In this document: one piece after another, positions 15,497 through 23,270 of the stretch
How positions within the stretch are numbered: the first letter of the stretch is position 1
Layout of the letters: each line of letters opens with the position of its first letter
NCBI RefSeq assembly: GCF_001677475.2
Contig: NZ_CP015229.1
From: Escherichia coli
Lineage (GTDB): Bacteria; Pseudomonadota; Gammaproteobacteria; Enterobacterales; Enterobacteriaceae
Length of the DNA stretch: 64,000 nucleotides
Strand: one strand, 5' to 3'
Made by a program: the position numbers and the translations under genes
The notes under the pieces: model-generated
The model's database searches: none
Told to the model about the DNA's origin: nothing
Seen by the model: the letters and a program-made list of their open reading frames with translations, nothing else

Positions 15497-17404
15497 ATGA
15501 AACTGATTTCTAATAAGGCCAAATTAAAAAAGATTCTCAGAAATGCCGCAAAATATATAACTCCACCGCCTAAACTCCTTCCATCTGAATGGTGCGAAGC
15601 GAATATGGTGCTGGTAGATGGTCCTCAAGCTGGGGATAAAGTTAAATTGCTGTCATTCCAGAAAGGCATGATTGATGCTCCTTTCCTTGAGAACAAGAAA
15701 AAGTATGTCCTGATGACCAGTGCGCAGATCGGAAAGACTACCATCCTGAACGGTATCCTGTTTAACCAGATGGCTAACGATCCATGCAATATGATTATCG
15801 GACAATCAACCGCTAAAGAAATGTCTCAATATCTCGCTGGTAAGATCCGACCGTCTATCGAAGCATGTGATGCATTAAAAGACGTGGTTACAGACAAGAA
15901 TGATCGCAATGCTGTTAACAACAATAACCAACTCCAGCTAAAAACTAATCACTTCCTGTACATGGTATCGCTAACCAGTCCATCAACCCTACGTGGTAAG
16001 ACCGCAAAGGTTGGATTGCTTGATGAAATCGATGCTGCCACAGCCTCAGAAGAAGGTGATCCGGTGGCACTGGCTGCTAACCGTTTAACTACCTTTGGAG
16101 ATGAAGGTCGATTAGTCGTATCCAGTACCCCGACCAGTAAGCTCGGAAGCATTAACCAGCAATGGTTATCAAGCGATATGCGTATGTTTTTTGTTCCGTG
16201 TCCTAATTGCGGTAGACACCAGGTGATCGAATGGGAAAACGTACAGTTTGAATGGCGTAACATCGATGGTAAGAACTTACCCGATCCTGATACCGCTCGT
16301 TATATTTGCCCCCACTGTAAGAACGCATGGACCGAAGGGGAACGAATCAGGGCAGTAGCACAAGGCGAGTGGAGAGCAACCCGTGAAAGTGAAGTAGCAG
16401 GATTCTGGATCAGCCGTCTGTATTCACCTTTCAGTACGATCCGCGCTTGTGTGGTTGATTTTAGTCATGCGTGGCAATCCTTTGATTTACAATCATTTTA
16501 TAACACCGTATTAGGTAAGGTATACGATGATCAGGACACGGCAGTAGAAGCAAATGAACTGGAACAACTCAAAACAGATGTTTCTATCGAGAATATCCCT
16601 GATGACGTGATTTTCTTGTGCTCAGGAATTGACCAGCAATTGGACCGCGCAGAATCTACCATCTTAGGTGTAGCGAAAGATAAGGTTTACATTCTGGATC
16701 ACCGCAGCTTTTACGATCATAACTGTGAACGATACGAATCACCTGTTTGGGATCGTCTGGTTAACTTCAAGAAAACCAAATTCTATAACGTTAATGGTGA
16801 ACGTGTACCAATGCTCGCCAGCTTCCTTGATACATCGAACGGTCGATTCACTCAAGCCGGATACCGTATTTGCGGCAAGTGGAAGAACCTACACGCTATC
16901 AAAGGTAGTTCATCTGGTAATGCTCCAGTTATTCCGGTTAAACCTACCCGTACAGGTGGTCATGAATTGCTTATGCTGGGTGTTAACGTTGGGAAATCCG
17001 CTGTTCGTGAAATGCTGGTTAGAAACCTGAAAGATAATCCTCATATTGGCTTAGAAATATCAGAAACCGTTCCTGATGATTATCTCGATCAGCTTTTGAG
17101 TGAATCCATCAAGCGTACTACTACTGGTGTTCGTTGGGTGAAAAATCCAGGTAGTACCCGAAACGAAGCTCTCGACTGTCTGGTTTATAGCTATGCGGCT
17201 TCTCGCTACGTTCTTTCAAAAATGTCATGGGATAAACTCATTGCAATGAAAGACAGCTTAAACCGTGTTAAAGAAGAACCACTAGAAGCTCCTGAAACGC
17301 AATCTAACGAGCAAATCGAAGAAACTAAGCCAATCACACGACCACAACGTCAAAACATCGCCAGACGTCCAAATAGAGGCCGTAGCTGGGTAACATCGTT
17401 CTAA
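15497..17404 (+). CDS. Terminase large subunit, lambda gpA-like (635 aa)
   Basis: [19 protein letters not shown]...[10 protein letters not shown] and [14 protein letters not shown] parallel lambda gpA CPHCGEEQYLKFGD...YLCEHNACVI and NEALDCFVYALAAL; Walker-like SAQIGKTT. Confidence 0.85.
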
Positions 17405-17476
17405 TAACTCGCCGTCCTTCGGGGCGGCTTACTCCTAAATATTGTTAATCCAATAACAATTAAATAAGGGGTAATT

Positions 17477-17971
17477 ATGAGTTTAGAACTAATTCCCTTA
17501 GTAATTCGTAAAGGCGAAAAAATCACGCTGGCGAATGAAGAGGGTGTAACAATTCAGGTAGGAAATAGTAAAGGTATCATTTATCAGGTTGATGATACTC
17601 CGGCTAATCACGAGATTAAAACCTTAGATTTTGCCGAGGGTAAATATACCATCGTAATAACTTTGGAAGAAGAACTGGTATCAATGCAGGAATTAACTGT
17701 TTTACCAGTATTCTCCAAACAATCCAAAAAAGAATATCTGCGGGAAACTATCGCCTTAATCGAGCAAGTTATTTTCGCCCGTTTATCTGGGGACGAAGCC
17801 GCATTATCTCAAATGACAGTGAAAGGGAATACTTTCGCCTATGAGTCATTGGCTGTTCTCCAGCAATTAAAGACTGATTATGAACGTCAGTTATCTAAAT
17901 TAATTCAAGCCGAACGACGTAAACAGGGAATTAGCCCGATTAAAAATATCAAATTACGTCTTACGCGATAA
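17477..17971 (+). CDS. Hypothetical head-module protein (164 aa) between terminase and portal
   Basis: ORF with RBS; position equivalent to lambda W but larger; no motif recognised. Confidence 0.45.
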   Translation: MSLELIPLVIRKGEKITLANEEGVTIQVGNSKGIIYQVDDTPANHEIKTLDFAEGKYTIVITLEEELVSMQELTVLPVFSKQSKKEYLRETIALIEQVIFARLSGDEAALSQMTVKGNTFAYESLAVLQQLKTDYERQLSKLIQAERRKQGISPIKNIKLRLTR

Positions 17972-17981
17972 GGGGTAAATC

Positions 17982-21730: not shown

Positions 21731-22021
21731 ATGTTCAAATTATCAGAATCACAATTATCAAGAATGTTTAAGAGTGCTCCTGTATTTGTGGTGGAAGGTG
21801 GTAAATCAATTCGTGCTTATCATGAAATTACTACTACCGACGAATCAGGGGTAATGACAGAAACAGAATTTCTATTCTGTCGTGAGGGAGACTTAAAGCA
21901 AGGTGATATTGTCACAGTAGAAAACCAGCGTTTCAAAGTTCAATATATTAAGCGCAATGGTGACAATACAACTGATTGCTTTATTACTCTGGCAGGGGGT
22001 ACACATGCTCGCTACCGTTAA
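21731..22021 (+). CDS. Putative head-tail joining / head-completion protein (96 aa)
   Basis: Size and position after the capsid gene; RBS AAAGGGGG. Confidence 0.4.
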   Translation: MFKLSESQLSRMFKSAPVFVVEGGKSIRAYHEITTTDESGVMTETEFLFCREGDLKQGDIVTVENQRFKVQYIKRNGDNTTDCFITLAGGTHARYR

Positions 22022-22427
22022 TAATATGCCGAGACTGAAAATCAAACGCGCCTTGCAAGATATTATCGAACAAGATTTAGGTCTGGCTTTAAACGTAGAA
22101 CAAACTCAGCAAGGCTTTAGCGATGACGTGGTTTGTTGGATTACTGGCATGAATGAAACTTATACGCGTGTTCGTGGTGGTAATGCAATGCAAGCTGAAT
22201 GTGTTATCGAAATGCAGTTATATTCTCAGATTCATGAAACGAAAATTCATGAGGGTATTTGCGAGATAATCCAGATTCAGCCGGATAACCCACGATTTAA
22301 AGATTTGGGCTTCTCAATTTCAGATATCACTCCAGTAGCTTCTAATACCGATTATGACGATGATTCTAGTGATGGGGGTATCGTTGGGACACTTAGCCTT
22401 AAATTTTCTTATCTAGCGCGTTTTTAA
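22002..22427 (+). CDS. Putative head-tail connector/adaptor protein (about 141 aa; ORF track offers an upstream ATG at 21957)
   Basis: Overlaps the end of the previous gene (translational coupling); RBS GGGGGT before the 22002 ATG. Confidence 0.4.
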   Translation, partial: HMLATVNNMPRLKIKRALQDIIEQDLGLALNVEQTQQGFSDDVVCWITGMNETYTRVRGGNAMQAECVIEMQLYSQIHETKIHEGICEIIQIQPDNPRFKDLGFSISDITPVASNTDYDDDSSDGGIVGTLSLKFSYLARF

Positions 22428-22436
22428 GGGGTAATA

Positions 22437-23270
22437 ATGAATATTACACAAGATAACTTAGACATTTTCACGGGGTCGCATGTTGAAGTCTCCTTGTCTA
22501 CTATGGTGGATAACCAGCCGGACTTTTTCGATCCTGCATTTAGTCCTATCGAGAACATCGCAGCATTCCCGACGATAACCGAATCCACAGAGATCCAGAC
22601 GTTAGAAGAATATGACCATGATGTTACTGGTAAGTTGGCTGGCTATCGTAAACTTGAATCAACTACGTTAGTAGTAAACCGTGTTCTGGATGATGAACAT
22701 CAAGACATGTTGATGAAAGCGGTGAATGATAAAACTCCTTTACGCTTTCGTATGTTCTATGTTGTGAACTCTGGTTACAGTGCTGCTAACACAGGTTACT
22801 ACGTCATCTTTGACGCTTTCGTCTCGTCACATAAAACAAAATCCGGCGATAACAAAGTTACTACAATCGAGTTTAAATTAGAACCTGATGGCGGGATTCT
22901 GGATCGCGGTATTGCTACCGAAGGCCGGATCTTACGTCAAGGTGATTTTGGTCTGGGTGCTGGTGTAAATCCATTCACGGGTCCGATTGATAGCGAAGCA
23001 TTAGCCGGAAACCGTTTCGTAACCTATCAGGGATCGAGCGCATCTAACCCATTTAGTGCTGATACTTCACTAATTCACGTTCAACCTAATGAAGATGGAG
23101 GATGGCAATTAACTTGCACCGCCTCCGGCGCACCACGTTTACGAGTTCGCACAGTCCAGAAAGATGGTAATTCTGGATGGGTGAAAGTGTATTCCACAGA
23201 AGAAAAACCGACACCAGCCGAGATTGAAGCCGTTTCTATCCATGACAGGATCGATTTCGGGGAATACTGA
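22437..23270 (+). CDS. Putative virion structural protein (277 aa), neck/tail-proximal; function unclear
   Basis: ORF with RBS between connector genes and tail fibre; G/S/T-rich C-terminal half. Confidence 0.4.
   Translation: MNITQDNLDIFTGSHVEVSLSTMVDNQPDFFDPAFSPIENIAAFPTITESTEIQTLEEYDHDVTGKLAGYRKLESTTLVVNRVLDDEHQDMLMKAVNDKTPLRFRMFYVVNSGYSAANTGYYVIFDAFVSSHKTKSGDNKVTTIEFKLEPDGGILDRGIATEGRILRQGDFGLGAGVNPFTGPIDSEALAGNRFVTYQGSSASNPFSADTSLIHVQPNEDGGWQLTCTASGAPRLRVRTVQKDGNSGWVKVYSTEEKPTPAEIEAVSIHDRIDFGEY

Follow-up and report, generated by a model that had tools for sequence, protein, structure and literature searches.

A tail-less island in codB of Escherichia coli, very probably a prophage that lost its tail and lysis genes beside an IS3-family element

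Genes and features of the island

The window analyzed here, a 64,000-nt stretch of Escherichia coli DNA, contains a codB gene that is interrupted by an island, with the 5′ and 3′ parts of codB on opposite flanks (Table 1). The island encodes an integrase, and precomputed Pfam annotation of the 560-aa product on a public contig, in the same context, gave matches to Resolvase and Zn_ribbon_recom and a weak match to Recombinase. This domain set (Resolvase catalytic, recombinase, and zinc-ribbon) and length are those of the large serine recombinases, which span ∼500–600 aa. The first-pass annotation had proposed a size of about 23 kb and a serine integrase, and both were borne out.

Table 1. Features of the island and its junctions with codB; positions are those of the 64,000-nt window
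Feature	Positions	Strand	Size	Remarks
Island, probable defective prophage	∼7835–30920		23.1 kb	Low GC
attL junction	7831–7850			codB 5′ part (ORF 7473–7844) ends ...CCGGTGGG, then prophage sequence; junction sequence as in 39EVA
TerS-family protein	8528–9079	+	183 aa	phrog_57 terminase small subunit, E 2.6e-15
Iteron-like array	11821–11994			∼8–9 copies of AAACCTACACTA; spacing mostly multiples of ∼11 bp
Rha/Ant-family regulator	13463–14305	+	280 aa	phrog_63, E 4.6e-18
Large terminase TerL, gpA type	15497–17404	+	635 aa	phrog_15, E 2e-135
Head-tail joining protein	17477–17971	+	164 aa	phrog_5774 connector, E 5.4e-9
Portal, lambda type	17982–19493	+	503 aa	phrog_21, E 5e-69; Phage_portal_2
Prohead protease-acidic linker-HK97-fold major capsid fusion	19539–21539	+	666 aa	phrog_617, E 5e-92
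FII-like head-tail attachment protein	21731–22021	+	96 aa	Pfam Phage_attach, E 6e-5
Protein with no family match	22005–22427	+	140 aa	99% identical to intact relatives
Tail-tube paralogue	22437–23270	+	277 aa	phrog_158 major tail protein, E 1.6e-9
Tail-fibre gene, truncated at codon 975	23347–26274	+		Stop is the first TGA of the IS
Complete IS3-family element	26272–27500	+	1229 bp	orfA 26329–26613; orfB 26670–27482
GIY-YIG nuclease cargo gene, 3′ remnant	27501–27938	+	Last ∼438 nt	5′ ∼738 nt missing
Large serine integrase	28012–29694	−	560 aa from ATG	phrog_95, E 1e-55
attR junction	30900–30921			Prophage end, then codB 3′ part (30913–31818), then codA; identical in 39EVA

The TerS gene of the left arm lies 6.4 kb upstream of the TerL gene and outside positions 15497–23270, the interval in which a Nu1-like TerS had been reported; its TerS family membership was upheld, but the match to Pfam Phage_Nu1 was not significant (E 6.5). 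The array of AAACCTACACTA sits within an ORF-poor stretch at ∼11350–12630 and, judged from its sequence, is possibly an origin or operator region. The Rha/Ant protein matched the TIGR02681 Rha family with an E value of 7e-10, but its 39-bit score falls short of the curated cut-off of 45.95. It was the sole regulator found when the island ORFs were searched with PHROGs, NCBIfam, and PADLOC; no primase-replicase and no AlpA/MerR/Stl-type regulator was detected among them, very divergent versions being possible.

All head and packaging genes between positions 15497 and 23270 are full-length, with no frameshifts or stops. GpA_ATPase and GpA_nuclease Pfam matches were recorded for an identical TerL product on a public contig, and the capsid fusion comprises Peptidase_S78 (residues 40–162, E 2e-9) and Phage_capsid (residues 407–662, E 1e-26) domains, in agreement with the identities and coordinates first given for TerL, portal, and the protease-capsid fusion. 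The gpA-type TerL, Phage_portal_2, S78 protease, HK97-fold capsid, and FII-type adaptor together correspond to a head module of the lambda/HK97 type. Of the small proteins that had been called connectors, those of 164 and 96 aa were supported by profile matches, although the match of the 96-aa protein to NCBIfam tail_join_FII was weak and under the cut-off. The 140-aa protein had no match in PHROGs, NCBIfam, or Pfam, and its gene position suggests a neck or head-completion role. NCBIfam gave nothing useful for the small island ORFs.

The same interval had been described as head-only and the island as lacking a tail tube, descriptions that are contradicted by the 277-aa product by profile, sequence, and structure. 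In addition to its phrog_158 match, this protein aligned with 28% identity (E 4e-15) across the whole 157-aa tail tube of a complete prophage in strain 39EVA, and Pfam gave no match. An AlphaFold run on the single sequence was unusable (pLDDT 33); an AF2 model made with a 24-sequence alignment reached pLDDT 76–92 in the N-terminal domain, and consists of a tube-fold domain (residues ∼12–163) and a C-terminal domain of ∼115 aa that was modelled poorly. Its best PDB match was lambda gpV (8k36_A, E 7e-8, TMt 0.64), followed by the YDC107, 80alpha, and NF5 tubes.

The fibre gene, which matched the phrog_1699 long tail fibre distal subunit (E 1e-102) over profile positions 92–822 of 1000, had been noted before, but not its truncation by the IS: 975 aa remain, compared with 1121–1176 aa in relatives. 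The IS3-family element is not flanked by a target-site duplication (..CAGGT on one side and GACAA.. on the other), and full-length copies with 100% identity occur in other E. coli. On its far side, the nuclease remnant aligns from position 739 of a 1176-nt gene in strain L3Cip3 (L003 19263–20438) and matches only the C-terminal profile positions 468–548 of 576 in the phrog_681 endonuclease. The fibre and nuclease genes are thus both interrupted, and the IS is situated at the junction between them.

As the first-pass annotation had stated, no tape measure, holin, or endolysin was found among the island ORFs, and neither a tail tip nor a chaperone was found there. PADLOC detected no defence genes among the unassigned ORFs, and Rfam detected no RNA families inside the island, the only matches being REP/naRNA4 copies outside it.

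Intact relatives

The complete prophage of 39EVA (NZ_CP138416.1, ∼1216568–1252411) occupies the same codB site with identical attL and attR. The codB flank up to the attL point is 95% identical in the two genomes, the integrase arm is 95–97% identical at the DNA level, and the integrases are 97% identical. The TerS, TerL, FII, 140-aa, and 277-aa proteins are 81–99% identical, but the portal and capsid only 53 and 41%. Sister complete prophages were found in hicB in PK8568, O55:H7 DEC5A, and L3Cip3. The head proteins of the PK8568 prophage are 90–99% identical to those of the island (TerL, 98%), and TerS is 94–95% identical to that of intact relatives. The family is mosaic, with the island matching PK8568 in portal and capsid and 39EVA in the integrase arm.

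In all four prophages the genes of the left arm, the head module, and the integrase arm follow the same order as in the island, which is collinear with complete prophages save for one contiguous missing block. The intact late operon runs from TerL, the head-tail joining protein, portal, protease-capsid fusion, FII-like adaptor, 140-aa protein, and 277-aa tube paralogue through the long tail fibre, tail tube, chaperones, tape measure, distal tail protein, and tail-tip proteins to a lysis cassette (D-Ala-D-Ala carboxypeptidase endolysin), variable cargo, and the integrase. Homology to the relatives ends inside the fibre gene and returns either with the nuclease remnant or shortly ahead of the integrase. 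The block absent here (about 13–16 kb) holds the remainder of the fibre, the tube, chaperones, tape measure, distal tail protein, tail tip, lysis genes, and cargo. Where the island has the IS, 39EVA carries a full tail and lysis set, with profile matches for the major tail protein (E 3e-20), tape measure (E 5e-64), and endolysin (E 2e-45), and for a chaperone, distal tail protein, and tail tip. Complete prophages of the family are ∼35 kb long, that of 39EVA being 35.8 kb and the island 23.1 kb.

The tail module is present in 53 of the 54 complete E. coli genomes that carry this head module. The exception, C325, has a separate IS3-linked truncation with different breakpoints. An IS in the L3Cip3 fibre gene was considered as a precursor of the one described here and was rejected, the two having no detectable DNA similarity. 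No genome yielded the exact undeleted parent, the best whole-module identity being 94%, and the parent was therefore reconstructed from relatives.

Found in ∼1% of complete E. coli genomes, the family also extends to Salmonella, Shigella, Providencia, Edwardsiella, and Proteus, and its members use a serine integrase that targets codB or hicB. Peculiarities of these prophages are two genes placed between those for the neck and the tube, one for a second tube paralogue and one for a T4 gp37-like fibre, and the lack of recognizable replication or immunity genes. When the head-module DNA was compared with 50,697 phage records, one weak 245-bp match was obtained, and no close isolated phage was found. 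Similarity to known phages was confined to distant protein similarity, with no DNA similarity. A siphovirus-like segment in the record of Escherichia phage DCP80 has the same fused Peptidase_S78-capsid gene (45% capsid identity) and shares the order TerL, portal, tube-paralogue, tube, tape measure, and tip. Dinoroseobacter phage R4C, Rhodobacter phage RcCronus, Halomonas phiHAP-1, and Vibrio VP882 have the Peptidase_S78-capsid fusion (∼30% capsid identity) in small genomes of ∼36–39 kb. A literature search on codB- or hicB-integrating serine-recombinase prophages returned nothing relevant, and the family appears to be uncharacterized.

Origin of the island

The gene identities, the synteny with intact relatives, the shared att site, the truncated genes on both sides of the IS, and the lack of a target-site duplication were all directly observed. 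Taken together, they make it very probable that the island is a defective prophage, a deletion derivative of a ∼35-kb temperate siphovirus that integrates into codB by means of a large serine integrase. The first-pass annotation had offered two possibilities, a decayed phage and a capsid-forming satellite-like element, and had named two results that would refute the satellite: tail-type proteins among the ORFs, or a tail module deleted together with IS-flanking sequence, as judged from a close relative. Both were obtained, in the tube paralogue and in the complete relatives, one of them in codB, and the decayed phage is strongly favoured.

On this reading, an IS3-family element sits toward the 3′ end of the fibre gene, and about 13–16 kb, from the IS as far as the middle of the GIY-YIG nuclease cargo gene that neighbours the integrase, has been lost. 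Insertion would have come first and deletion second, likely through loss of DNA adjoining the IS or through recombination between a pair of IS copies. The surviving parts are the left regulatory arm, the head and packaging genes in intact form, a single tube-fold protein, the shortened fibre, the integrase, and the two att junctions. If induced, such a remnant could do no more than excise and perhaps fill heads; it would be unable to build tails or lyse the cell and is therefore not an autonomous phage. The absence of further decay in the surviving genes can be reconciled with a recent deletion, as well as with some use that the genes have kept. Other public assemblies, GCA_002516285.1 among them for the fibre, have this truncated fibre and this nuclease remnant where contigs end, a pattern consistent with a vertically inherited deletion.

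The cryptic prophages DLP12, Rac, Qin, and e14 of E. coli K-12 were shaped by IS elements and deletions. Like these, the island is a remnant in which some modules stayed intact after IS insertion and deletion and which became fixed in a host lineage; it differs in its derivation from another siphovirus lineage, which has a serine integrase and seems not to have been described, and in keeping the integrase and both att sites.

The deletion could also be real and the remnant an accidental or nascent satellite, excised, packaged into its own heads, and mobilized when an intact relative that co-infects or resides in the same cell supplies tails and lysis. The integrase, both att junctions, and the TerS, TerL, portal, capsid, and adaptor genes are intact, the deleted form persists in several assemblies, and E. 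coli has intact relatives. Packaging, however, would be difficult. In lambda, gpA-type cos packaging needs roughly 75–105% of genome length and, if this lambda figure is applied here, the remnant (∼64% of parental length; 23.1 versus 35.8 kb) would be too short and a dimer (∼130%) too long. Moreover, identical junctions at contig ends are what clonal inheritance predicts, and there is no sign of a co-resident helper within the window. Mobilization is therefore considered very unlikely; if it did occur, the island would show, in nature, a phage on its way to becoming a capsid-forming satellite through loss of tail and lysis genes.

Still less probable is the reading favoured in the first-pass annotation, that of a satellite resembling the capsid-forming PICIs (cf-PICIs), which make their own capsids and take tails from a helper phage. 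The resemblance is real: like cf-PICIs such as EcCIEDL933, this small 23-kb element is integrated, encodes its own capsid and packaging set (TerS, TerL, portal, protease, HK97-fold capsid, and head-tail adaptor and connector proteins), and lacks most tail and lysis genes, including a tape measure and tail tip. Its serine integrase had already been pointed out as a departure from described cf-PICIs. In the cf-PICI definition of the SatelliteFinder model (PMC10085698), tail and holin genes are forbidden components, and a primase-replicase and an AlpA/MerR/Stl regulator lie next to the integrase, in the integrase-proximal half. No holin was found in the island, but the 277-aa tube paralogue and the fibre gene belong to the forbidden tail class, and neither a primase-replicase nor such a regulator was detected in any island ORF. 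The intact relatives likewise have no recognizable repressor or replication gene, and this absence is therefore uninformative on satellite status. In addition, the gap is bordered at both ends by truncated genes at an IS without target-site duplication, and the relatives, at 90–98% protein identity, are complete phages, including one at this very att site. Nor is the tail-less architecture conserved: with a single other copy in 54 lacking the tail, at different breakpoints, it represents a one-off IS-linked deletion, unlike that of cf-PICIs.

A head module domesticated for host use, for example as a GTA-like or encapsulin-like system, is the least credible reading and was rejected: head genes free of frameshifts and stops are also expected soon after a recent deletion, the breakpoints are arbitrary and lie inside two genes, the integrase and att sites are retained, no tail or lysis function is available for release, and nearly all relatives are whole, tailed phages.

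Read alone, a tail-less island with a complete head module resembles a capsid-forming satellite; its relatives show a phage that lost its tail block beside an IS. Before a cf-PICI is called, satellite finders and human readers should look for tailed relatives and for truncated genes at IS borders.

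Setting of the island and its surviving genes

A block of low GC content (40-46% vs ~55% in the flanks) occupies ~7.8-30.9 kb of the window and splits codB, the cytosine permease gene, into a 5' part and a 3' part that is followed by codA. The junctions, placed by comparison with another strain, lie at ~7835 and ~30920, and the island therefore measures 23.1 kb, a 1229-bp insertion sequence (IS) included. No tRNA genes were found in the window. With codB split, a functional cytosine permease should be absent from the host, and codA expression may be affected. The attR sequence gives the 3' codB fragment an in-frame ATG. 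REP-type naRNA4 (RF02564) copies near codB and the mhp genes are ordinary E. coli intergenic repeats.

Gene calls in the head module (15497-23270) were checked against PHROGs and Pfam, which bore out the head and packaging genes claimed for it in the first-pass annotation; a 140-aa ORF had no match in these family searches. The "Nu1-like" TerS proved to be a TerS-family protein, its Pfam Nu1 match not being significant. The reported lack of tape measure, holin and endolysin among the island ORFs held, and neither chaperone nor tail tip was found.

Features of the window and of related loci (L001, E. coli PK8568; L003, E. coli L3Cip3; L005, E. coli 39EVA; L006, Escherichia phage DCP80 record; L007, E. 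coli C325, NZ_CP124819.1)
Feature	Position	Strand	Details
naRNA4 copies, just upstream of codB	7147-7223; 7241-7317
codB, 5' part	7473-7844
TerS-family protein	8528-9079		phrog_57, E 2.6e-15; 6.4 kb upstream of TerL
60-aa early-arm protein	11164-11346	minus	common domain
AAACCTACACTA array	11821-11994		~8-9 copies, iteron-like
85-aa early-arm protein	14546-14803	minus	common domain
200-aa early-arm protein	14806-15408	minus	common domain, twice
TerL, gpA-type	within 15497-23270		E 2e-135
164-aa head-tail joining protein	within 15497-23270		E 5e-9
Portal, lambda-type	within 15497-23270		E 5e-69
666-aa fusion	within 15497-23270		Peptidase_S78 (residues 40-162), acidic linker, HK97-type Phage_capsid (residues 407-662)
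96-aa FII-like Phage_attach protein	within 15497-23270		E 6e-5
Mosaicism comparison	15497-23270; 27935-30920		vs L001 and L005
Tube paralogue and long fibre	22437-26274; L005 22505-27310; L006 8763-13705
IS3-family element	26272-27500		1229 bp, complete
GIY-YIG nuclease 3' remnant	27501-27938		directly right of IS; last ~438 nt of 1176-nt gene
Large serine recombinase integrase	28012-29694	minus
codB, 3' part	30913-31818
naRNA4 copy, downstream of mhp genes	50328-50403
Variable selfish/cargo genes	L001 35394-36164; L003 17050-20438; L005 39475-41595
Fibre gene with unrelated IS3-family element	L003 1-4836
IS3-family truncation of protease-capsid gene, with deletion	L007 16040-19265

A tail-tube-type protein and tailed relatives

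The 277-aa ORF matched PHROG 158, "major tail protein" (E 1.6e-9), and its residues 3-163 align at 28% identity (E 4e-15) with the full 157-aa tail tube of a related prophage, itself a match to PHROG 158 (E 3e-20). A structure predicted from the sequence alone could not be used (pLDDT 33); with 23 homologues and paralogues added, the N-terminal domain reached pLDDT 76-92. The top solved-structure matches of this model were siphophage tube proteins, the best being lambda gpV (8k36_A, E 7e-8, TM 0.64 normalised to the target), followed by the YDC107, 80alpha, NF5 and monocin tubes. The profile match, the tube alignment and the structure matches rule out a head protein. The first-pass annotation had described the interval as head-only and had itself named a tube identity for this ORF as evidence against that reading; the ORF is of tube type.

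Every intact relative has, after its neck genes and ahead of the canonical tube gene, a gene for a tube paralogue extended by a further C-terminal domain and one for a long fibre resembling T4 gp37; in DCP80 the paralogue domain forms the N terminus of a 698-aa protein. The paralogue may form a ring on which the fibre docks or be a second species of tube protein.

Among 5426 complete E. coli genomes, 54 have the head module (80-95% DNA identity), on the chromosome every time. PK8568, O55:H7 DEC5A and L3Cip3 have the same left arm and head module in elements inserted in hicB. The tail and lysis block that comes next is complete in them and comprises a full-length fibre (1141-1176 aa), a tube of 156 aa, two ORFs of chaperone size, a protein of ~810 aa, small tail proteins, a tail-tip protein of ~1250 aa, small ORFs, a D-Ala-D-Ala carboxypeptidase and a serine recombinase. 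In 39EVA, a 35.8-kb member lies in codB with attL and attR junction sequences identical to those of the window, an integrase arm 95-97% identical in DNA and an integrase protein 97% identical. Its genes without counterpart in the window encode, according to PHROGs, a major tail protein, fibre adhesin, tail assembly chaperone, tape measure (E 5e-64), distal tail protein, tail proteins, tail-tip/fibre protein and endolysin (E 2e-45). A probe running from tape measure to tail tip of 39EVA was positive in 57 genomes, including 53 of the 54 with the head module; "head-only" is not a recurrent design.

Mosaicism in the family is strong. Portal and capsid of the window match those of PK8568 (hicB) at 96 and 90% identity but those of 39EVA (codB) at only 53 and 41%; for the integrase arm, identity is 97% to 39EVA vs ~76% in DNA to the hicB type. 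Two integrase/att specificities are being exchanged among common structural modules. A NUMOD3 homing-endonuclease-like gene lies within the tail module of some relatives, and GIY-YIG nuclease, DEAD/DEAH helicase and protease-inhibitor-like genes occur between lysis genes and integrase.

Truncated genes flanking the IS

Homology to relatives extends from the left arm to ~740 nt into the fibre gene, whose remainder is a variable region, and picks up again at 27501 (vs L3Cip3) or, just before the integrase, at 27925-27935 (vs other relatives). Between lies an IS3-family element that is complete, since 100% identical 1229-bp copies occur elsewhere in E. coli. The first TGA of the IS closes the fibre ORF at codon 975, and the profile alignment of the ORF ends at position 822/1000; relatives' fibres have 1121-1176 aa. 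On the other side, the nuclease remnant, which in PHROGs matches an endonuclease profile at the C-terminal end only, lacks the first ~738 nt of a gene that adjoins the integrase in L3Cip3. The flanks (..CAGGT / GACAA..) have no common 3-5-bp repeat as a target-site duplication. Two cut-off genes beside an IS without such a duplication are the mark of a deletion associated with the IS; measured against 39EVA and L3Cip3, the lost DNA amounts to ~13-16 kb. TerS, TerL, the 164-aa protein, portal, capsid fusion, FII-like protein, 140-aa and 277-aa ORFs and integrase are full-length, without stops, and share 90-99% identity with one or another of the intact relatives, so the deletion is probably recent.

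The 975-aa fibre recurs, identical, on 9 contigs of public draft assemblies, the one contig displayed ending right after it, and in a draft assembly the nuclease remnant (129 aa, identical) is found 77 bp from the start of a contig, followed by integrase and codB'-codA. Such recurrence is expected if the deletion is inherited vertically within a lineage. The sole head-positive, tail-negative complete genome is C325, in which the protease-capsid gene is cut short by a different IS3-family copy and the lost stretch runs into chromosomal ynfF/ynfE, tail genes and integrase being gone; its breakpoints differ from the window's, pointing to independent decay. An unrelated IS3-family element interrupts the fibre gene of the otherwise complete L3Cip3 relative, and several other family copies have annotated IS1 or IS5 insertions; the family seems to accumulate them.

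Satellite readings and the parental lineage

Phage-inducible chromosomal islands that form capsids (cf-PICIs) are defined in the SatelliteFinder paper by 11 core components, among them integrase, AlpA/MerR/Stl-type regulator, primase-replicase, TerS, TerL, capsid, protease, portal, adaptor, connector and HNH, with tail and holin genes as forbidden components (PMC10085698). The window's element has their capsid and packaging set. It also carries tail-class genes, its relatives are tailed, and no primase-replicase or AlpA-type regulator was detected in it. It fails the membership test, and the likeness is superficial. Of the original alternatives, satellite or decayed phage, the second was correct; the first fell to the tube-type ORF and to the complete tail and lysis modules of close relatives, both named beforehand as evidence against it. 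Nor does the missing repressor or replication gene mark a satellite: none was recognisable in the ~7.5-kb early arm of the window or of intact relatives, and the absence is therefore a family trait.

Mobilisation of the remnant by an intact relative is highly improbable, the remnant having ~64% of the parental genome length, whereas lambda-type cos packaging requires roughly 75-105% (a figure established for lambda), and the deleted form occurring in a clonal pattern. The decayed prophage may still excise, could assemble heads and would perhaps fill them; it should be unable to build a tail because tip complex, tape measure, chaperones and canonical tube are missing, and would not be able to lyse the cell.

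In the early arm, the AAACCTACACTA copies lie in an ORF-poor stretch (~11350-12630) with start-to-start spacings mostly in multiples of ~11 bp (22, 33, 44, 55) and several further short direct and inverted repeats nearby; the array is a possible origin or operator of the prophage family. A ~50-residue domain is common to the 60-, 85- and 200-aa proteins (pairwise E 8e-7 and 2e-5), for which no database family was found; they are candidate DNA-binding regulators of the lineage.

No close isolated phage was found, DNA comparison with 50,697 phage records yielding nothing beyond one 245-bp match, and our literature searches turned up no account of serine-recombinase prophages that integrate in codB or hicB. 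The 277-aa protein has homologues in E. coli, Shigella sonnei, Salmonella, Providencia, Edwardsiella and Proteus. The element is an ordinary IS-shaped defective prophage whose siphovirus lineage is conventional, though uncharacterised. Capsid fusions with ~30% identity occur in small siphophages of Dinoroseobacter, Rhodobacter, Halomonas and Vibrio; nearer is the first ~26 kb of DCP80 (PQ671644.1; capsid 45% identical), a 141-kb record filed as T4-like Gaprivervirus. Its positions 1-26000 hold the family's siphovirus module (TerL, portal, capsid fusion, tube, tape-measure-sized and tip-sized genes, endolysin), and T4-like genes (motA, ndd, rIIA) follow after ~26 kb (30000-40000 compared). The record looks like a chimeric assembly; if it is, a member of this family forms virions and was co-purified with a T4-like phage.
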